A stretch of 36,983 nt of DNA from a virus. Taxonomy: Duplodnaviria > Caudoviricetes. The stretch lies in the IMG/VR virus record IMGVR_UViG_3300020045_019002, positions 1 through 36,983 of that record. The stretch is one strand, 5' to 3'. Below, piece after piece: positions 8,368 to 26,567 of the stretch. The notes beneath the pieces are model-generated. The model had not been told where the DNA came from and did not search any database. It saw only the letters and a list, made by a program, of their open reading frames with translations. A program made the position numbers and the translations under genes. Numbering within the stretch: the stretch's first letter is position 1; every line of letters starts with the position of its first letter.

Positions 8368-9297
8368 TTAAACATTCGAAGGGAATGGATTCCTATAACC
8401 TATTCCATCAGAATATATTGTTGGCACTCTGTTTATACTAAGCTGTTTAAGCGTTCTTCTTTCTACGAGTCTTTTTTGTTTTTCAAACAATAACTCAACT
8501 TTTTGGTAGCTTTCCAAATCTAACTCATCTGCGAAAATCTTCATCGCAGCGCCATAAGCAATAAGTTGCCACCATTCGTTAAGTTGTGGTAAATCACCGG
8601 CGTTTACCAAGGCTGTTGGCGTTACATAGGTGTCCATTTCAACTCTATATGCCCTATCCGGAACGGGATAAAGTTGGAATACATCATTGTAGAAAAGCAC
8701 GGCAAATGGTCTTGAAGCCTGGTAATTGATATATTGCACTTGTATCGCAGTTCCCGTTGCCACAACACCGGTCCATGTGATGTTTGCTATGGCTCCAGTA
8801 ATATAATTGATTGTAGAGCCCGCGGCGATATCCCCTGTAAACGATCCTAAGCCATTATCTTGGGCTGTTAGAGAATTTCCGCCATTATCTACGGTTGAGA
8901 GCAAAACTCGGCTTCTTTTGACAGGTGTAGCGCTTATCGTTCCTGAATAGGGGCCGGCAATACCTGTTCCTGTCGTTAAGGTTTCTGTTGCTTGCAATTC
9001 GGGATATTGATCAAAGAAATATTGTCTGCTTTGATACAGTTCTGCCTGGTAGCCCCCAACATAAATCGGCCCCTCAATTGTTACATTTGCATTCGGTGTA
9101 AAATTGTAAAGATCTATATTTGGTGTAGTTATGAAACTGTAAACTTCTTTTAGACTCAATAACCTAAGGTGCTCTGGCAGATCGTATTGATAGAAGGTGT
9201 TTATATACTCATCCAGCTCAGAATTTGTGAGCTGATTTGTAGATGGCTTGGCCGTTACTCTTCTTACCTTTAATCTGATATCTGCTAAATCAGGCAT
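8368..9297 (-). CDS. Head-tail adaptor protein, 309 aa
   Basis: N-terminal LADIRLKVRR...ELDEYIN; C-terminal LYPVPDRAYRV...WWQLIAYGAA is typical of podovirus adaptor proteins. Confidence 0.7.
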   Translation of the reverse strand: MPDLADIRLKVRRVTAKPSTNQLTNSELDEYINTFYQYDLPEHLRLLSLKEVYSFITTPNIDLYNFTPNANVTIEGPIYVGGYQAELYQSRQYFFDQYPELQATETLTTGTGIAGPYSGTISATPVKRSRVLLSTVDNGGNSLTAQDNGLGSFTGDIAAGSTINYITGAIANITWTGVVATGTAIQVQYINYQASRPFAVLFYNDVFQLYPVPDRAYRVEMDTYVTPTALVNAGDLPQLNEWWQLIAYGAAMKIFADELDLESYQKVELLFEKQKRLVERRTLKQLSINRVPTIYSDGIGYRNPFPSNV

Positions 9298-9329
9298 TTA
9301 ATACCAATTTGTTACCAATTACTACCAAT

Positions 9330-9710
9330 TTAACTAAAATCGTTAGAAACAAAGCTATAACGCTCAAATGGCTTGTCTGCGCCAATCATCTTATTTCCGT
9401 CTTTGTCAACGAGCCATTTATGCTTTTTATAGCGACATTGACGGTTAATATGTCGTGCTACTCCTAATGGAAGTTCATATTCCTGTCCATCGATAAGATT
9501 ATAAGTTCTAATTGGATCACCTTTATAAAGACGGATTGAAAATGTTGCGTCTCCATTGGGACACTCATGATTTTTAAAAATCCCCTTCACAAGCCTAGAT
9601 TCTTCCTGTCTGGCTGCTTCTACAAATTCGGAGGCTTTTTTTCGCTCTTCTTCAGAAAGCTTTTTTCTTTTTTCTAGGTGAACTTCTTTTACATAACTTA
9701 ACGCTGACAT
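9330..9710 (-). CDS. Hypothetical protein of the morphogenesis cluster, 126 aa
   Basis: ATG 9710 after AAGGAG (the track's upstream start lies in the promoter region); contains DGQEYELPLGVARHIN. Confidence 0.7.
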   Translation of the reverse strand: MSALSYVKEVHLEKRKKLSEEERKKASEFVEAARQEESRLVKGIFKNHECPNGDATFSIRLYKGDPIRTYNLIDGQEYELPLGVARHINRQCRYKKHKWLVDKDGNKMIGADKPFERYSFVSNDFS

Positions 9711-9744
9711 ATTTCTCCTTGTATTGCCTTTGTATCTAAATTGT

Positions 9745-9773
9745 AAGTTAGTAAAGATGGGTTTAATAGTCAA
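9745..9773 (-). promoter_or_regulatory. Sigma70-type promoter TTGACT-N17-TAACTT
   Basis: Identical hexamers, 17-nt spacer and extended TTGACTATTAA also occur at 14896-14924. Confidence 0.65.
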
Positions 9774-9791
9774 AATTTTAATATACAAAAC

Positions 9792-9814
9792 AAAAAAGGG
9801 CTCCGAAGAGCCCT
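9792..9814 (-). terminator. Intrinsic terminator after the capsid operon
   Basis: AGGGCTC-TTCG-GAGCCCT followed by a T-run on the minus strand. Confidence 0.85.
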
Positions 9815-9847
9815 CTAAATACTCAAAGAATTGAGTAAAATTGAACG

Positions 9848-10786
9848 CTAGACTGTATAGTCTCGGCTAAGTGCAACCCAATCCATGACATTGGTATTTG
9901 CTCCAACAACAGTCGTTCCTAAGGTAAGTCCATAGATACTTCCGTTATCGGTTGGCTGATCAAGTGCAGTTGCTATTTCACCAAAAGGCACAACATGCGG
10001 GAAGCTAATTCCAGCAGCTGCGACAGCTGATGTTGGGAATGCAAATGCAGTGAAAGCGCTAGAGTCAATATTTACCGTAAAAGTACTTGCTGTTATGGCA
10101 GTGATTTGTCCAGTTCTTCCATTGATTTGAGTCATTCCCCATCCAGCAGGAACACGGATAGTTACGAGGTCGCCCACGGTATATCCATGATCTACTGATG
10201 TTGTTACAACTGCGCTAGCAGCGGCAGTAATAGCAGTGATCCATCGACGACGAGGTAAGAACCTAGCATCGTTGATGAGTCTCCAGCTACCCGCTGTTGC
10301 AGCAGCAGCAAATCCAGCTGAGGTTATGTTGGCAAGTTGAAAGCTTACGCCTGCAACTACTGTTCCAACAGTAAACTCTAGCCCTGCAACTTGAAGCATT
10401 CCAGTTGTTCCATAAACACGGACGATTTGTCCGGCTGTAGGAGTTGTTCCAGAAGAAACAACGGCTGGATTTGCTTGGTTGATTGCAGTGATTGCCGAAG
10501 CGGCTCCATCGCTATATGAGCTTTGGTCAACTTCGGTAAAACCGGCTCCACCAGCGGCAACAAGTGTGCCATTGAGTGCGCCAGCGCCAGATTCTGTAAT
10601 TGTCTTAGCTTGGCCAGCGGCATAGCCACGGTACCAGAAAGATTCAATTACAGCATTTGGGTTTGTTCCCCAAGTAGAGCGGTTGGTTACCTTGAAGTAA
10701 TCTACCGATTTTGGGAATGTTATTGTTCTTACAGCTCCATCAGAAGTGAAAGAACCAGAAGCAACTAAAGATAAAGGTGTGCTCAT
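9848..10786 (-). CDS. Virion structural (capsid-associated/decoration-like) protein, 312 aa
   Basis: Directly downstream of the capsid gene, SD AGGAG. Two repeated beta modules (AITAINQANPAVV / WITAITAAASAVVTTSVDHGY). Confidence 0.65.
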   Translation of the reverse strand: MSTPLSLVASGSFTSDGAVRTITFPKSVDYFKVTNRSTWGTNPNAVIESFWYRGYAAGQAKTITESGAGALNGTLVAAGGAGFTEVDQSSYSDGAASAITAINQANPAVVSSGTTPTAGQIVRVYGTTGMLQVAGLEFTVGTVVAGVSFQLANITSAGFAAAATAGSWRLINDARFLPRRRWITAITAAASAVVTTSVDHGYTVGDLVTIRVPAGWGMTQINGRTGQITAITASTFTVNIDSSAFTAFAFPTSAVAAAGISFPHVVPFGEIATALDQPTDNGSIYGLTLGTTVVGANTNVMDWVALSRDYTV

Positions 10787-10797
10787 ATTCTTACTCC

Positions 10798-10902
10798 TTA
10801 TGCGGCTGTGCAGCGAAGATTAAAGACCCAAGAATCATTAGTGATTCGTGGAACTTGTGCAAATCTGCATGCTGCTGTTTGTCTTAATTCTGCTGGGTCA
10901 TC
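10798..10902 (-). CDS. Major capsid protein exon 3 (DDPAELRQTAACRFAQVPRITNDSWVFNLRCTAA*)
   Basis: Follows the intron terminal G at 10903 and joins exon 2 in frame (HPPGHG|DDPAELRQT), resembling the N4-gp56-type C-terminal G-DP-x-Q-x-T motif. Confidence 0.85.
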   Translation of the reverse strand, partial: DDPAELRQTAACRFAQVPRITNDSWVFNLRCTAA

Positions 10903-10940
10903 CAAATTTCTGTTACTTAATGACTTAAATAGACTAATTA

Positions 10941-10949
10941 TGTTATAAT
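10941..10949 (+). promoter_or_regulatory. Extended -10 promoter element (TGTTATAAT) for the antisense LAGLIDADG gene
   Basis: TGnTATAAT ends 7 nt before ATG 10957; no SD, so probably leaderless. Confidence 0.6.
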
Positions 10950-10956
10950 TGCTGTT

Positions 10957-11856
10957 ATGAAAGATGATTTTGATCTTGCTTATGTAGCTGGATATATTGA
11001 TGGAGATGGCTCTTTTTATTGTCGAAAAGAACCTGACAAGAGAAATGGGAAGATCTATTTCCGGTGTGGAATAAGAATTTCTTCTACAAACGTCCAAGTT
11101 CTTCAGGATTTTAAATATCGCTTTGGTGGATCTGTTTCTAGCGGAGCGATTTATAAAAATCGATCCCATCATAAACCGATCTTCTCTTATCATCTTCAAA
11201 ATCAAAAAGCCTTTGCTCTCTCCAAATTGTTGATCCCTTTCCTTACAGAAAAAAAGCAACAAGCCGAAATACTGTGTCAGTTTTTCAAAAGCAAAAATTC
11301 TGATTTTAAAATATCTTGCACAACTAAAATTACAGAATGCAAAAGTCTTTCGAAAGATATTGATAGACCTATAAAAGAACTCATTACTAAAACAAAAAAC
11401 ACGATCGAACCAATAGCTGAAGATTTTTCTTATCTCGCTGGTTTTATCGACGCTGAATGTTGTCTTAAAATTATGAGAACTAGAGGTTCTAAAAAACTCT
11501 CTCAAAAAATTTATCTTTGCTGTAACAACACATCCTATACAGTTTTTAAATGGATAATTCCTAGATTTGGAGGCAATTTGTATTTTGTTTCTAGAACAAA
11601 CAAAAACCCAAGTTGCAGCGATCAACTTTATTGGTATATTTCCAGTAAGGCTCTCGAACTTCTTCTTCCGAAGATTTATCCAGTACTCAGATTTAAAAAA
11701 CCTATATGCAAACAATTGATAAACTTTTCTGAAACAATATTTCCAAATGGAGGAGATCGCCAGTCCAAGCAATTCAAAACTGCTCTGGCTTTTGCTCTTC
11801 TCAAGCGTGAATTTATTATCCAAAAAGTTCATCTTTTAAACCGTAAAGGTTGTTAA
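10957..11856 (+). CDS. Double-motif LAGLIDADG homing endonuclease, antisense inside intron 2, 299 aa
   Basis: Motifs LAYVAGYIDGDGSF and FSYLAGFIDAECCL; RFGG turns; LIPFLTEKKQQAEI. Confidence 0.92.
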   Translation: MKDDFDLAYVAGYIDGDGSFYCRKEPDKRNGKIYFRCGIRISSTNVQVLQDFKYRFGGSVSSGAIYKNRSHHKPIFSYHLQNQKAFALSKLLIPFLTEKKQQAEILCQFFKSKNSDFKISCTTKITECKSLSKDIDRPIKELITKTKNTIEPIAEDFSYLAGFIDAECCLKIMRTRGSKKLSQKIYLCCNNTSYTVFKWIIPRFGGNLYFVSRTNKNPSCSDQLYWYISSKALELLLPKIYPVLRFKKPICKQLINFSETIFPNGGDRQSKQFKTALAFALLKREFIIQKVHLLNRKGC

Positions 11857-12059
11857 CTTATTTAAGCGGGGAAAGTTCTTCGACTCTCCCTCTCGGGGTT
11901 TCCTCCCGAGTTCAGACTATCGCTTCTCTTTTCAGAGTCTCTAGACTTAGTCGTTCACGCTGCAAGAAGCATTTCTGCTTCAGCTTGCGCCTTGTCGCCA
12001 TAGCTTTCGCCGTAGGTGTCCAAGTCAATCACTAGAGATTTATCCACGGCAATGACTTC

Positions 12060-12555
12060 ACCGTGACCTGGTGGATGAAAAATGAAAGCAGCCGATTGGC
12101 TAGTTTGATCAATCACTCCATAAGCTTCTCTACCTGTTACGAATACGTTGTAGATATCCGCTCCAAGTAAGGACGCATTAGTGGTAATGGAACCGCGTGA
12201 AGAGACCATAAATCGGATGTTTCCGACAGATCCCCATTCGGCTGAACCAACACCTTGTTGATTTGGATATTGGGCCTTTTCAATGAATCCAGCTACGTTG
12301 CGAAGCTGACCGATCATGTCTGTGTGAGCCATCCCAAAATAGGCATCCATAATTGGGCCTGTACCAAATTTATCATCCCCTTCTTTCATGGACGTGATAA
12401 AATCAGCATCGTTTGATTGAAGAGTTTGAACTACAGCATCCACATCGGCGGCTGTAATTTCTGTGGGGTTATCGCCGTTTGTTCCATTTACGCAGTTAAC
12501 TACTGAAGCCGTTCCTGCCAGCATATCGCGGCAAAGTTCGTCTTCTGTTTCACGC
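12060..12555 (-). CDS. Major capsid protein exon 2
   Basis: (AT|G)RETEDELCRDMLAG...AYFGMAHTDM...YPNQQGVGSAEWGSVGNIRFMVSS...GREAYG...HPPGHG, an N4-gp56/HK97-fold core pattern. Confidence 0.88.
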
Positions 12556-12704
12556 CAAAATCTGTTACTTTCACCTTTCTGGGCTACTGACCATATTTCT
12601 ATGGCGGAAGGTCTTGTTATTCCCTTCTCCAAATCTTTCGAAATGGGTCGGACTATCGCACATGGTATTTTATAACCATTCAAACCGCTTAGTCTCTGCG
12701 GGTC

Positions 12705-12733
12705 TTGATTTCTTTTCAGTTTCACTGTAAACT
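12705..12733 (+). promoter_or_regulatory. Sigma70-type promoter TTGATT-N17-TAAACT for the antisense LAGLIDADG gene
   Basis: The -10 element ends 7 nt before ATG 12741, the same geometry as in intron 2. Confidence 0.55.
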
Positions 12734-12740
12734 CATTGGA

Positions 12741-13670
12741 ATGAAAGAAGAATTGTTTTATCTTGCTGGCTATTTTGAAGGAGATGGATGTTTTCGAATT
12801 TCTAAATATCTTCAAAAAAAGAAGAATATTTTTGTTTACGAGCGTTCCATGACTATTACAAGTGTTTGTAAACCAACAATAGAATTTTTCTGTAATCAAT
12901 TTAATGGATTTATGCAAATCGTTGCATCGAAAGAAAGAAAAAAAACAGCCTTTGTCTGGACTATAAAAGGAAAAGAATCGGCTTGTCTTGCCAAAAAACT
13001 TCTTCCTTATTTTATTAGCAAAAAAACAGAATGTTCTTTGTTTATAGATATAGACAATTCGGTTGTACAAAATAATTTCAAAAAAGTTTCTAGTAAAATA
13101 CGTGAAAAGCGAGAAGCTCTTTTTGATCAACTTAAAACTGATCGTCACAAAACGTTGCTTGTTATAAAAGAAAAAATAGATGTTATTTCTAAGACTAAAA
13201 AAACTGTCGTACCATTTTGGTATGACTATATTTTTCTTGCAGGTCTTGCAGATGCTGAAGGATGCTTTAGAATTTGTGCTAGGCACCGCAACAGAAACAA
13301 CAAAAAAGAAAAGATTTATAATATCACTTTTGAAATTGGAAATACTAAGATTGCCATAATTGAATGGCTTGTTGATAGATTTGGCGGCAATGTTACCTTT
13401 ATTGAGGCAAAAAAAACATGGAAAGGTAAACGTGCAATTGCCATTTGGGCTATCCATTCTAAATCTCTTTTTCCAATTTTGAATAAAATTCATCCTTTTC
13501 TTAAAAATAAACAAGCTGTTTGTGAAGAGCTTATTAAATTCCAACAAACAATTCTTCCTAATGGAGGCGATAGACACAGCGACTCTTTTAAAAAAGATAT
13601 CGCTCGACGAAAAGCCATAAGAGAAGATATTATTAGCGCCGTTCATATTTTGAATCGCAAAGGAATTTAA
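12741..13670 (+). CDS. Double-motif LAGLIDADG homing endonuclease, antisense inside intron 1, 309 aa
   Basis: Motifs LFYLAGYFEGDGCF and YIFLAGLADAEGCF. Shares the C-terminal TI-PNGGDR-S--FK...VH-LNRKG with the intron 2 enzyme. Confidence 0.92.
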   Translation: MKEELFYLAGYFEGDGCFRISKYLQKKKNIFVYERSMTITSVCKPTIEFFCNQFNGFMQIVASKERKKTAFVWTIKGKESACLAKKLLPYFISKKTECSLFIDIDNSVVQNNFKKVSSKIREKREALFDQLKTDRHKTLLVIKEKIDVISKTKKTVVPFWYDYIFLAGLADAEGCFRICARHRNRNNKKEKIYNITFEIGNTKIAIIEWLVDRFGGNVTFIEAKKTWKGKRAIAIWAIHSKSLFPILNKIHPFLKNKQAVCEELIKFQQTILPNGGDRHSDSFKKDIARRKAIREDIISAVHILNRKGI

Positions 13671-13765
13671 TGTTCAAGTTCCCTCTGGTTGTCATAGGAA
13701 GTTATGCAGCTTCCCTTAGATTTTCCAAGGTATTCAGGTTTGATTTAAAGTCCACACGTATGTTT

Positions 13766-14118
13766 ATGGACTGACCCAATCTTGCAGCAGCGGCATTCAA
13801 AACTGGATCTTCATTGATGGCCGTCACCTGACGGGTCAAAATTACATAAGTTGCGTAGAAATCAATCCGTGCATCCAAGTCCACTGCATTTAATTGTTGT
13901 GCAGGTGGGTTGTTGAATGTTGTATTGAGTGGAACTGGGAATGTATTAAGGCGCGTGTAGCGTCTCATACGCATAATATCTCCGCTTCTGTCCGGCATCA
14001 CATAAGGTGTTGCGAAAGCTTTGTGAATCAATCTCGCTTGAGGAGTTGCTAAAAGCTTTTCGTTGAACCGTTGTGCTACAGGAGGTGGCAAAGATGTGCT
14101 TGTTGTAATAGCACTCAT
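13766..14118 (-). CDS. Major capsid protein exon 1 (N4-gp56-like; spliced CDS 954 nt, 317 aa)
   Basis: After the scaffold gene, SD GGAG. MSAITTSTSLPPPV...MPDRSGDIMRMRRYTRL...EDPVLNAAAARLGQS; AT|G rebuilds a Met codon on splicing. Confidence 0.88.
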
Positions 14119-18654: not shown

Positions 18655-18727
18655 TGCTGGCAGAAGGATTTGAACCCACAACCCCCTGAGTACAAAACAG
18701 GTGCTCTTCCAATTGAGCTATGCCAGC
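18655..18727 (-). tRNA. tRNA-Thr(TGT)
   Basis: GCTGGCA acceptor, GCTC/GAGC D-arm, anticodon loop TT-TGT-AC, GGTTCAAATCC T-arm. Trailer is TCA rather than CCA; mismatches in the anticodon and T stems. Confidence 0.88.
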
Positions 18728-23082: not shown

Positions 23083-23406
23083 TCATTTCCTCTGGTATCT
23101 TGTTCTAAGAAGTAAAGCGGTTGTGGGATCTTTTTTAAATCGTCTAGTTAAAAGTCTAGAGATTCGGGGAAATCTTACATTGCATATCTCGGCTGAACGC
23201 CAATTACTCACTATACAACACACTTTCACTTTTCTTTCTTCTAGATTCAAAATGTAGGTCGGCTTGTGCTTATCGTTTCTCCAATGCTCACAATATTCTC
23301 CACCCACAAGGCACAATAACATAAGTGATTTTCTTAAATGTTCGCACATAACGGCCTCTATCATTTCGTGGGAAGAAAGACACTTGTTTGCTTTCTCAAT
23401 ACCCAT
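23083..23406 (-). CDS. Cys-rich hypothetical protein, 107 aa
   Basis: SD GAGGAG, start overlaps the end of TerL. Confidence 0.5.
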   Translation of the reverse strand: MGIEKANKCLSSHEMIEAVMCEHLRKSLMLLCLVGGEYCEHWRNDKHKPTYILNLEERKVKVCCIVSNWRSAEICNVRFPRISRLLTRRFKKDPTTALLLRTRYQRK

Positions 23407-25735
23407 GCTTACTCCTCATCTCCTTAAGTTTTTCTTTCGTCATCCCGCCTGGTGTATTGCCCACAAACTCAAGGGCTTGCGTTAAGTAGCGTAGGCAGTC
23501 TGAGTTGCTAACTAAAATGCCGTTTGCAAAATAACAATGATCGCTTTCGACCTCGATATCAAAAACCTCTATTTCGATGTCCAAGCGCAGCTCCGCAACT
23601 TCTTGAACATGTTGTTTGTATTGAGTATTTAGAAGTATTATAAACGGCTCCACAAAATTCGCATTTTCTTTCTTCGAAATCCATTTTTTCTCTATAACGG
23701 CCTTTCTGTTTACATGCGGAGGAGCAGTATTTTTGGTGATATGTTTTGGCGCCGTATTTTTTTTTACATTGAATGCAAATCTTGGGGATATGAAAAATAC
23801 CAAATCTAAATCTTCGAGCATGTTTTTTATGCCATTTAATGCCTTCCTCACTGCCATGCCACACTTTTGCAAATTCCATGGCTTTATAAATGCCCTTACG
23901 TGAGACTTCTTTTCGTTCTTCGGTTGACATATGCTCCCTGAGATGCTTTCTTTTTTCGATGCACTCAAGATTTTCAATCTGATTATTTCTCGAATTTTCG
24001 TCTTTATGGTGAATATGATGCCCTCTTGGGATCTTTCCATTACGCTTTGCCCAAACTGCTCTTTGTAAATAGGAATGCTTATTAGATGTGGTTGAGCCTC
24101 TTTTATAATATCTTTCATACCATCTGTAATAGTATCCGTCGAAAATGATTTGTTTTTCATCCTCGCTAATAAGAAACTCTCCCGAAACCCTAAATCTTGT
24201 ATCCTTGAGTTTGATCCAAATTGTTTCTGCCATTCATCTATTCCCTCTATAGAATATAGAGGATCATTATATCGTAGAGCATCAGAAAAAACAAGTGAAT
24301 TGCCGCTAAATATCTTGTGATTTTTTGTGCAGATTATTTCACCGTGATCAAATTTAATATTTATTAATTCCTTAACAGTATATCTGAATTTGGTAAGCAC
24401 TTTTCTTTTTCCGGTTGGCGTTAGCACGAAATCCCCCACTAAGACACCTTTTATCGGCTTTTCTCCAAATGGTGTTGCAATAAGGGTTTCTCCTATAAAA
24501 CACGAATGGCTCGACCAATCGTGCCTCGGCCTGCCCCTGAATACCTGAGCCCTGTCATCCCATTCAGCATGGTATTGCAATAAGCACTTGATCAAATATT
24601 CGCATCTCGTCTTGTCAATAAACATTCTGGGCATTGTGGATCGAACTTTTTCAATACCTTCCATAATGGAATACTTGTTTTCGAGGATCGAAAAATCAAA
24701 TCCTGCTTCTCTTGCCGTTTGAACGAAGGTCGTTCCCGTATTGTTGTGGCTTTTCCCGTCGTGGGGCGCGAAATGTTTTCCATAATTATACTTCCTTTCT
24801 CTTAGCACATTTAGATAGTGTGATAAAGCGTACCCCGTGTTCTCATAATGATCAACGATCAAGATTTCATTACCACGTATTTGAAAAAATATGATCACCA
24901 TTGCATCTGTAAAGCCTAAATCCCATACAGTATATACGAGGCGATTTTCTTCAATGGGCACATAGCCAATGCGTCCCTCTTTTTCCATTTGCTCGAGCTG
25001 CTTGCCGTAGTAAGATCCGACAACGCCGGAATCAAATGAACAAAAGTATTCTTGCCTTATCATTTCTTCGGAAATACCCTGGGAACGCTTCCTGTCGATC
25101 TCCTTTAGCTCAATTAGGCCTGTATCCTCGATGGTATATAAAGAAGCATGCCATTCGGGGTCAGTCTTGGCGTATTCATAAAGTTCATAAAAGTGATTTT
25201 TGCTTTGTGGCGTACTGTTGAAAATTGCCCACCCTTTGTTCTTAGCCAGAATAGGATCTAAAATGGCCGTCCATACGAGCGGATGTTGATAAGCGTACTC
25301 TGAAAGAACAACACCCATTGGATTTGTTCCGCGCAGAGCATCATAGTGATCAGAGCCTAGCACTTGTATAATTGAGCCGTTAAATAGCTTGAGTTTCATT
25401 TCGTTGAGCCATTTCTGTTCAAGCGCGTGGGGAGGAATAAAGTCTAGATAGCTCATTCCATCTTCAGTGATGTTATCCCAAAAGGCTTTGCGTGCCTGTG
25501 CGTAGGACGGAAAAACGTAGAAATAGACACCCTTGCGTATGCATGCTTTTTCAAGCAAGATGTTCCAGCACGTGATATCTTTACCGCCTCGCCTGTGATA
25601 GACAATAACAGCTCTTTTTTTTCCCTCGCCTGCTCTGCCATCTACGATCATATCCGAGTCTCTCATAGCCCAAATAACTGGCTCTTGGTGTGGGTATGGC
25701 TCGAATAGATGGGGCAGTTTAATGTCTATAGTCAT
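23396..25735 (-). CDS. terL: Terminase large subunit with intein (779-aa precursor, 446 aa spliced)
   Basis: Walker A HRRGGKD, LRGTNPMGVVLSEYA, FNSTP, QEYFCSF, nuclease WDLGFTD. Spliced HDWSSHS|SDCLRY matches the HDWSSHxxDxxRY motif. Confidence 0.95.
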   Translation of the reverse strand: MTIDIKLPHLFEPYPHQEPVIWAMRDSDMIVDGRAGEGKKRAVIVYHRRGGKDITCWNILLEKACIRKGVYFYVFPSYAQARKAFWDNITEDGMSYLDFIPPHALEQKWLNEMKLKLFNGSIIQVLGSDHYDALRGTNPMGVVLSEYAYQHPLVWTAILDPILAKNKGWAIFNSTPQSKNHFYELYEYAKTDPEWHASLYTIEDTGLIELKEIDRKRSQGISEEMIRQEYFCSFDSGVVGSYYGKQLEQMEKEGRIGYVPIEENRLVYTVWDLGFTDAMVIIFFQIRGNEILIVDHYENTGYALSHYLNVLRERKYNYGKHFAPHDGKSHNNTGTTFVQTAREAGFDFSILENKYSIMEGIEKVRSTMPRMFIDKTRCEYLIKCLLQYHAEWDDRAQVFRGRPRHDWSSHSCFIGETLIATPFGEKPIKGVLVGDFVLTPTGKRKVLTKFRYTVKELINIKFDHGEIICTKNHKIFSGNSLVFSDALRYNDPLYSIEGIDEWQKQFGSNSRIQDLGFRESFLLARMKNKSFSTDTITDGMKDIIKEAQPHLISIPIYKEQFGQSVMERSQEGIIFTIKTKIREIIRLKILSASKKESISGSICQPKNEKKSHVRAFIKPWNLQKCGMAVRKALNGIKNMLEDLDLVFFISPRFAFNVKKNTAPKHITKNTAPPHVNRKAVIEKKWISKKENANFVEPFIILLNTQYKQHVQEVAELRLDIEIEVFDIEVESDHCYFANGILVSNSDCLRYLTQALEFVGNTPGGMTKEKLKEMRSKHGY
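23504..24502 (-). mobile_element. Intein in the TerL nuclease domain (333 aa, residues 412-744)
   Basis: Block A CFIGETLIATPFGEKPI; block B IICTKNHKIF; blocks F/G VFDIEVESDHCYFANGILVSN followed by Ser+1. Confidence 0.93.
23559..24233 (-). CDS. HNH endonuclease with C-terminal CxxC...CSxxC zinc-finger repeats, nested out of frame inside the intein, 224 aa
   Basis: YLQRAVWAKRNGKIPRGHHIHHKDENSRNNQIENLECIEKRKHLREH; CIQC..YCSSAC; CEFC..TCSRSC; SD GAGGG 9 nt before the ATG. Confidence 0.9.
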   Translation of the reverse strand: MAETIWIKLKDTRFRVSGEFLISEDEKQIIFDGYYYRWYERYYKRGSTTSNKHSYLQRAVWAKRNGKIPRGHHIHHKDENSRNNQIENLECIEKRKHLREHMSTEERKEVSRKGIYKAMEFAKVWHGSEEGIKWHKKHARRFRFGIFHIPKICIQCKKKYGAKTYHQKYCSSACKQKGRYREKMDFEERKCEFCGAVYNTSKYSIQTTCSRSCGAALGHRNRGF

Positions 25736-25823: not shown

Positions 25824-26567
25824 ATGACTAAACATTATTTAACCGCAATCGGTTTGGCTTTAACATGTGCCTCTATCGTTAGCGGATCAGAAGTTGATCA
25901 ACTACAGCCGTCACGCTCTATTTTTACGAATAAAGAGCAAACGGCACATGTATGCTATAGCAAAGAGGACATTTCTTTTGGCAGCGTTAAGCGCGTTTCT
26001 GTGAGCACGTCTGCTCTCATGGAAAAAGAAGAGGCTAACACCATCTATTATGGTATTGATGCATCTTTCGGCGGAGTGTGGAGTACCTATGCTCTAGACT
26101 ATATCCCAGACACCACAGTTACAATTAAGCATTTCGGCCTAGGTGCAACTATCGGTCTTAGAGGTGGATATTCATGGGAGCTGTTTAGCAAGCTCGCGCT
26201 CACACCATATCTTAAGCTAAGCACTGGTTTTTTTGCCCCAGAATCCCAATTCATCAGCAGTTTTGTCAACGGTTATAATTCTGCTATTGGACTCAGGGCA
26301 TCTTACGCCTTTTTAAGTTCACTTACAGCTGGTCTTGACGTGAGTATTTCAAGGCCTCTTGGAAGATATTCTAGGATAACTTACTTAAAAAAAGGATGGA
26401 CTGGGACGGGCAAAGAAAAGTTCGGCTACTCTGCTGCGCTCCCTATCACGTATAAACCGGCTAAGTGGGATCACATCAAGTTCTTTGTTGAGCCTAAATA
26501 TGCAGGCTCTCATCTTGCTCATAAGGGATCTTTTGAGTACGGAATTGGCACAATCTACTGTTTTTAA
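25824..26567 (+). CDS. Outer-membrane beta-barrel protein (moron), 247 aa
   Basis: Signal peptide; alternating strands (GATIGLRGGYSW, LTAGLDVSIS); C-terminal FEYGIGTIYCF; SD AGGAGG; upstream TTGACG at 25769. Confidence 0.75.
   Translation: MTKHYLTAIGLALTCASIVSGSEVDQLQPSRSIFTNKEQTAHVCYSKEDISFGSVKRVSVSTSALMEKEEANTIYYGIDASFGGVWSTYALDYIPDTTVTIKHFGLGATIGLRGGYSWELFSKLALTPYLKLSTGFFAPESQFISSFVNGYNSAIGLRASYAFLSSLTAGLDVSISRPLGRYSRITYLKKGWTGTGKEKFGYSAALPITYKPAKWDHIKFFVEPKYAGSHLAHKGSFEYGIGTIYCF

Follow-up and report, generated by a model that had tools for sequence, protein, structure and literature searches.

The window analysed here is the whole 36,983-nt virus record IMGVR_UViG_3300020045_019002 (completeness 99% by the source's estimate). 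It carries a major capsid gene split into three exons by two predicted group I introns, each with a LAGLIDADG endonuclease gene on the opposite strand. Because both endonuclease genes avoid the Leu and Ser codons TTA, CTA and TCA, the mRNA strand holds open reading frames (ORFs) of 563 and 344 codons across them, to which we refer as cover frames. A capsid intron with an antisense LAGLIDADG-like ORF is already known from mycobacteriophage LittleE; the stop-free mRNA strand is a strong, well-controlled rule that is as yet unexplained. This frame, and predicted promoters built into ribozyme helices, are features beyond an earlier sequence-only reading of the same DNA, which had described the split gene and its antisense endonucleases.

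Antisense endonuclease genes keep the mRNA strand free of stop codons

12741..13670, plus strand: endonuclease 1, two-motif LAGLIDADG; ATG at 12741 (ORF finder start TTG at 12705); PF00961 E 1.7e-10
10957..11856, plus strand: endonuclease 2, two-motif LAGLIDADG, 299 aa; PF00961 E 1.1e-10
11955..13646, minus strand: cover frame 1, 563 codons; ATG antisense to the endonuclease C-terminal His codon
10798..11832, minus strand: cover frame 2, 344 codons; start ATG opposite the His292 codon; same frame as exon 3

Cover frame 1 crosses the endonuclease gene and the 3′ ribozyme core and enters exon 2 in frame. Relative to expectations derived from 24 other genes of the same phage, endonuclease 1 has none of the three codons (13.7 expected) and endonuclease 2 a single one (17.9 expected), located at 11836 and hence upstream of the cover start. 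Avoidance of these codons throughout the genome, or through tRNA supply, was rejected as an explanation from this comparison.

To define the family, loci were fetched for the best 80 of 99 viral and the best 80 of 166 metagenomic entries, and endonuclease ORFs of at least 200 aa were scored. Antisense orientation to the capsid gene was found for 151 of the 161 scored ORFs, with six in sense and four lacking capsid context; dropping near-duplicates at 90% left 115 antisense representatives. Their count of TTA, CTA and TCA is zero in 57, one in 45, two in ten and three to five in the remaining three, and in the gene bodies of the antisense family these codons make up 3 of 4,384 Leu/Ser codons. 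They return at the edges, at residue 294 (34 of 90), two codons outside the cover start, and at residues 6–10 (19 of 93). A cover start codon lies antisense to residue 292 (His292) in 86 of 99 genes (ATG in 72, TTG in 10, GTG in 4), which places the 5′ edge of stop depletion at an mRNA-strand start codon. Upstream of it, pairing resembling that of a Shine-Dalgarno (SD) sequence, scored against an anti-SD motif, amounted to −2.89 kcal/mol versus −1.23 ± 0.14 kcal/mol in synonymous resampling (n = 86, related sequences).

The median gap between the stop of the upstream exon frame and the cover start is 50 nt in introns that hold the endonuclease gene in loop L6a and 151 nt in those that hold it in the P9.2 loop. 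In 32 of 69 introns the cover frame runs on as a fusion with the 3′ exon, and 36 of the 37 unfused frames end at most 89 nt from that exon, which leaves little of the insert uncovered. It is in phase with the 3′ exon in only 52 of 109, by which obligate fusion was rejected. In 19 L6a-type introns at the same site, the cover frame passes helix P7 without a stop; across the six spacer lengths of these relatives it is never in phase where P7 gives a stop, a weak pattern. Searches of mostly open-access literature found no description of stop-free mRNA strands over intron endonuclease genes.

Stop depletion depends on intron context

Twenty-five sense-oriented LAGLIDADG genes of another subfamily, residing in the same capsid introns, use TTA, CTA or TCA for 435 of 1,195 Leu/Ser codons. 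Two genes of the antisense family itself that lack an adjacent intron core (48–51% identical to antisense members; one on a contig of only 1.1 kb) contain 12 and 7 such codons, spread along the gene, and two intron-flanked family genes on capsid-less contigs contain one each, at the C-terminal end. Also stop-depleted are all ten loci that fell outside the main counts because their endonuclease ORFs are shorter than 200 aa. They include half-length members of the main family (~150 aa), which argues that length alone is not decisive. At two of these loci a nonsense codon falls in the endonuclease and the cover frame is still open; one frameshift breaks both frames.

The mRNA strand is also stop-free (0 of 26 Leu/Ser codons) opposite an antisense LAGLIDADG gene of an unrelated single-motif lineage, L325:2495-2896, five relatives of which (47–71% identical) retain stops, pointing to a possible independent origin. 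The family tree, a quick version with a long-branch warning, places most members in one clade, and the count of origins drawn from it is provisional.

The cover frame is probably translated but its product shows no clear conservation

At conserved four-fold codons the third position is free to vary (mean 1.5 bits, near background entropy), which suggests that stops are purged continually whereas the amino acids of the cover frame are not kept. These amino acids show no column-specific conservation. Four-fold divergence in antisense genes was 0.573, 0.555 and 0.526 at 50–60, 60–70 and 70–80% protein identity, compared with 0.628, 0.650 and 0.544 in sense genes of the same bins, with similar saturation ceilings in both; the deficit is small and does not amount to strong constraint. 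We consider it probable that the cover frame is translated.

As to the purpose of such translation, our leading explanation, held tentatively, is a sequence-indifferent one, in which ribosomes on the cover frame keep up behind RNA polymerase and relieve Rho-type polarity in the structural operon. The late transcript would run through the capsid gene, the ribosomes from each exon would stop inside the intron, and new ones would start at the cover codon, a median of 50 or 151 nt further on, to follow the polymerase over ~0.9 kb of otherwise bare mRNA. Premature Rho-type termination of the structural operon would be prevented in this way before the intron splices, and the endonuclease, made from its own antisense promoter, would home into intron-less alleles. 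The antiparallel frame would be the cheapest to open, since synonymous exchanges at Leu and Ser codons of the endonuclease suffice to eliminate its three stops. In Chlamydia, Rho polarity has been reported (PMC7755916). The least secure part of the explanation is Rho polarity as the pressure relieved; splicing, homing, leaderless antisense transcription and cover translation are each predicted from sequence. A proposition to which we give an even chance is that of a translated cover gene with a meaningless product, by which antisense endonuclease introns would hold their place in the busiest mRNA of the phage, whose function would be ribosome traffic needed for expression of the virion operon and which would have arisen more than once, namely in the main two-motif clade, in a distant site-210 group and in the single-motif gene of L325.

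Several observations weigh against relief of Rho polarity by a translated cover frame. Five of six short antisense single-motif genes keep 7–10 stops and the LittleE capsid intron keeps two in the antiparallel frame, indicating that antisense introns can exist without a cover frame. SD-like pairing reaches −3.4 at only 37% of cover starts in the family, a level that capsid starts attain in 82% of cases and internal ATGs in 11%, and it is weak in the introns of the window themselves (0.0 and −2.4 kcal/mol); moreover, the sequences compared are related and the same bases could form a small hairpin. Excess of C over G is lost on the mRNA strand, a bias at four-fold sites that is common to genes that keep their stops and thus not specific; this rut-like skew was accordingly dropped as support for Rho. 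The host assignment behind the Rho argument is itself an inference, and phage antitermination could make Rho irrelevant. Finally, ribosomes crossing P7–P9 in L6a-type introns should hinder folding (PMC3984707).

The cover frame might instead be translated for the care of the RNA, with ribosomes guarding the AU-rich 0.9-kb insert against misfolding with the ribozyme, RNase cleavage or pairing with the antisense transcript of the endonuclease. This close rival predicts the same boundaries, the same start codon and the same lack of amino-acid conservation. None of the present evidence separates it from the Rho model. A chaperone role of ribosomes is established for T4 introns (PMC3984707), and the antisense promoters predicted in 84 of 99 genes (background 23 of 344) mean that complementary RNA would exist. 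However, the cover frame of L6a-type introns crosses the catalytic core, which a chaperone role does not need, and we rate this alternative as a serious but rather unlikely one.

True dual coding, by which the mRNA-strand frame would encode a functional protein, alone or fused to the C-terminal part of the capsid protein, appears improbable. It would account for the conserved start, for the length of ~290–560 codons, for four-fold sites slightly less diverged than in sense genes (0.555 versus 0.650 at 60–70% identity) and for the frames in phase with the 3′ exon. Yet those third positions are near saturation and track general codon usage, fusion is of limited extent, the C-terminus is arbitrary, and cover frames gave no Pfam or PHROG match outside the capsid part and a best score of 0.83, the chance level, in an Atlas search. 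The least probable reading, in our view, leaves the frame untranslated and traces the avoidance of TTA, CTA and TCA to codon bias of the endonuclease, to strand-specific mutation or to ancestry, a case made for many long antiparallel ORFs. Prokaryotes indeed have many such ORFs, most of them not under selection (bioRxiv 10.1101/724807), most family members come from one clade, and the ATG at the start is the complement of a conserved His codon, CAT being the more frequent His codon anyway (565 of 737 in the gene body). In contrast, the endonuclease genes are ~32% GC and use other NNA codons freely, the avoided codons reappear sharply beyond the start and also in members of the family that lie outside introns, and synonymous sites so near saturation mean that ancestry cannot hold codons out.

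If the cover frame is translated for ribosome traffic alone, it would offer an unusually clear natural example of selection for translation and not for a product, a question also posed by bacterial long antiparallel ORFs. Such a role would further account for the survival of kilobase-sized selfish inserts in phage mRNA under transcription-translation coupling.

Covariation supports both inserts as predicted group I introns

12556..13765, minus strand: group I intron 1, 1210 nt; internal guide sequence (IGS) 13755-13750; endonuclease gene in loop L6a
13743-13737/12686-12680 (P3) and 13730-13725/13688-13682 (P4), minus strand: intron 1 helices
13678-13674/12708-12704 (P6a) and 12694-12690/12655-12651 (P7), minus strand: intron 1 helices
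10903..12059, minus strand: group I intron 2, 1157 nt; IGS 12050-12045; endonuclease gene in the P9.2 loop
12038-12032/11944-11938 (P3), 11952-11948/11919-11915 (P7) and 11866-11859/10931-10924 (P9.2), minus strand: intron 2 helices

In both introns the 5′ exon ends in U, the intron ends in G, P1 has a U-G pair and P7 is present, in line with the sequence-only reading. That reading had called the P1 and P10 pairings exact, which overstates P10, a 6-bp pairing in intron 2 and one of only 5 bp, two of them G-U, in intron 1.

Across 17 homologous introns, P1 of intron 1 is paired in 101/101 alignment cells with the U-G pair invariant (17/17), P7 in 85/85, and P3 in 118/119 with double-sided changes at six of its seven pairs. 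For intron 2, an alignment of 36 homologous cores has 94.7% of cells paired and 27 of 38 pairs changed on both sides; none of 500 shuffles scored as high, and slid controls were 34–45% paired. P7 pairing is lower in this alignment (86.7%) because of a subgroup with a shifted P7. Covariation thus recovers the P3–P7 pseudoknot with a core of P4–P6, P8 and P9 in both inserts, which we therefore predict to be self-splicing group I introns, as had been claimed. The variant of P7, the guanosine-binding helix, involves changes on both strands (alignment A3; e.g., L126, L018, L151, L030, L029, L108).

Rfam model RF00028, the type of check first proposed, matched neither intron at any setting, and the group I call accordingly rests on covariation. 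A model built from the 36 cores finds both introns and no other significant match in the window, and has no match in the intron-less allele. The 3′ core of intron 1 is detected (E 4e-9) by a model that was built without this intron. One related intron matches RF00028 below threshold (26.4 versus 50 bits, E 0.006); the miss is a limit of that model with long inserts and not a failure of a defining feature. Inteins were rejected, as the upstream frame stops inside each intron (at 13704 and 11957) and neither sense ORF has an intein match. Automatic splice-site inference on relatives suffered from register errors, placing U..G among the near-best joins in 52 of 84 and missing join 1 of the window, and served only to choose intron cores for alignment. 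Contigs from four DNA sequencing runs gave fragmentary coverage with no informative junction.

The capsid intron family missed by Rfam occupies about seven insertion sites, and intron-less capsid alleles are common in the phage group. Many further capsid-gene introns occur in this group (L003, L283, L284, L068, L031, L046, L191 and other loci), among them endonuclease-free ones, several in one gene, and some with small sense-strand non-nuclease ORFs of 70–110 aa. Altogether, the capsid group I introns make up a large family that has escaped annotation, accompanied by more than 100 phage LAGLIDADG enzymes with inferable targets.

Predicted endonuclease promoters are embedded in ribozyme helices

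12705..12733, plus strand: predicted sigma-70-type promoter of endonuclease 1; 8/12 matches, below the scan threshold, homologues having the same geometry
10920..10949, plus strand: predicted sigma-70-type promoter of endonuclease 2; 10/12 matches, extended −10

Each endonuclease has two intact LAGLIDADG motifs and exceeds the cut-off of Pfam LAGLIDADG_1 (PF00961), bearing out the claim of one such antisense gene per intron. The two share 36% identity; D17, E167 and K247 are invariant in 50 family sequences, and the family profile matches solved structures of the I-MsoI, I-CreI and I-OnuI family, I-MsoI and I-CreI among them (best E 8e-18).

A predicted sigma-70-like promoter (at least 9/12 matches) lies upstream of the 84 genes mentioned above, the background of 23 of 344 being that of internal windows, and in 66 of the 84 the ATG follows the −10 box by 6–7 nt, predicting leaderless endonuclease transcripts. 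Helix P6a or P9.2, read on its reverse strand, supplies the −35 box. In the window, the −35 of endonuclease 1 overlaps the 3′ strand of P6a, with the −10 lying 7 nt before the ATG, and that of endonuclease 2 overlaps the 3′ strand of P9.2, with the ATG 7 nt past the −10. We infer that the endonucleases are transcribed antisense and leaderless from promoters embedded in P6a or P9.2, and that they home into intron-less alleles.

The joined exons encode an N4-gp56-family capsid protein

13766..14118, minus strand: major capsid protein exon 1, 353 nt; TIGR04387 E 8e-13; 91% identity to P0001 over 118 aa
12060..12555, minus strand: major capsid protein exon 2, 496 nt; phrog_1357 major head E 7e-17; TIGR04387 above cut-off
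10798..10902, minus strand: major capsid protein exon 3, 105 nt including the stop; 100% identity to P0001 over 34 aa

Joining 14118-13766, 12555-12060 and 10902-10798 yields 954 nt that encode 317 aa and a terminal stop, the uninterrupted protein that had been anticipated. The intron-less allele L164 is likewise 954 nt long and aligns at 73% identity without a gap at either join. Join 1 is gap-free in 120 of the 120 homologues listed, and 53 of these share an identical gap pattern at join 2, among them all 25 closest shown. The intron-less allele fixes the joins; at join 2 a shift of one base is possible, which the U/G rule resolves in favour of the position originally given. The closest homologue of the joined product is P0001 (88% identity). 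Exon 2 by itself scores 85.6 bits against the TIGR04387 (N4-gp56) hidden Markov model (cut-off 60 bits), P0001 scores 161 bits, and the predicted product is a major capsid protein of this family, as proposed. Locus scans with single proteins returned one locus for exon 2 and none for the endonuclease, and alignment queries were needed instead.

The upstream exon frame often runs ~100 nt into the 5′ half of the ribozyme and ends near P6/P7 (12059-11955 in the window, and homologues), and such read-through produces false capsid C-termini in databases (P0031, P0044, P0050, P0060). Gene callers also convert capsid introns into false N-terminal extensions of capsid proteins (P0022, P0077, P0079).

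The phage and its candidate host

The phage encodes a P22-like portal, a terminase, an integrase, RecE/RecT and one tRNA. Among cultured phages it has no close relative (top capsid match 28%, a single weak endonuclease match). Capsid relatives were found on 29 genome contigs, four of them from Chlamydiae, and in 5 of 300 genomes from the phylum of one capsid-bearing record. Two of these five matches lie on contigs of 137 kb and 223 kb, one of them adjoining citrate synthase and malate dehydrogenase. To judge from these capsid relatives in candidate host genomes, the host would be an environmental chlamydia; Rho is encoded by all five candidates. The match on the 223-kb contig (L201, G175:C4, ~9200-10400) contains two in-frame stops among host metabolic genes and is probably a decayed prophage.

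18655-18727, minus strand: tRNA gene (Rfam) near the integrase; best matches 84% in two of the five candidate host genomes; attachment site not identified
23396-25735, minus strand: terminase large subunit with an intein-like insert (Pfam Intein_splicing, aa 444-744)
23559-24233, minus strand: ORF nested in that insert in another frame of the same strand, 224-aa HNH endonuclease (PF13392, E 6.5e-14)
25824-26567, plus strand: orphan ORF, 247 aa; signal-peptide-like start and C-terminal Phe, by eye like an outer-membrane protein; no match in Pfam, PHROG and NCBIfam searches

With its HNH endonuclease, the terminase insert gives the phage a third homing-type element.

Comparison with known systems

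Phage group I introns generally prefer nucleotide-metabolism genes (PMC12350094), in line with the sequence-only reading, which had named DNA-metabolism genes. Its judgement that doubly interrupting a capsid gene with antisense LAGLIDADG introns is unusual proved weaker than claimed, given the orientation of most scored ORFs in this phage group and the precedent of LittleE (Pope et al. 2013, PMC3706429), whose capsid intron, confirmed by reverse transcription PCR, carries a bottom-strand LAGLIDADG-like ORF (gp14); that study also refers to an intron in the capsid gene of Tuc2009. What goes beyond LittleE is the presence of two introns and of a larger family. Both systems thus place a group-I-like intron with a bottom-strand LAGLIDADG-like ORF in the major capsid gene, whereas LittleE has one intron, a 177-aa single-motif ORF, and another capsid family and host. 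Its antiparallel frame has its two stops mid-gene and hence forms no full cover frame. The 5′ core of the LittleE intron matches the model built from the 36 cores (E 6e-8).

The td, nrdB and nrdD introns of phage T4 encode sense-strand GIY-YIG or HNH endonucleases and lie in nucleotide-metabolism genes, the endonuclease gene of td reportedly being at the L6a position. Like the introns described here, they are group I introns of phage mRNAs that carry their endonuclease genes in peripheral loops, and ribosomes influence their splicing (Hausner et al. 2014, PMC3984707). In T4, early stops keep ribosomes out of the intron, whereas a cover frame would carry them through; the accessible part of that review makes no mention of 'antisense', 'opposite' or 'capsid'.

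The predicted endonucleases resemble the I-MsoI, I-CreI and I-OnuI family in their two motifs, acidic catalytic positions and conserved Lys. The members named are organellar enzymes.

A parallel to the cover frame is offered by long antiparallel ORFs such as the one opposite dnaK, which likewise show stop avoidance without amino-acid selection; Moshensky and Alexeevski (bioRxiv 10.1101/724807) speculate that the act of being translated could be what counts. Unlike ORFs of the dnaK type, the open frame described here lies on the strongly transcribed mRNA strand, inside an intron and opposite AT-rich genes, and it combines a conserved start with a loss that depends on context.

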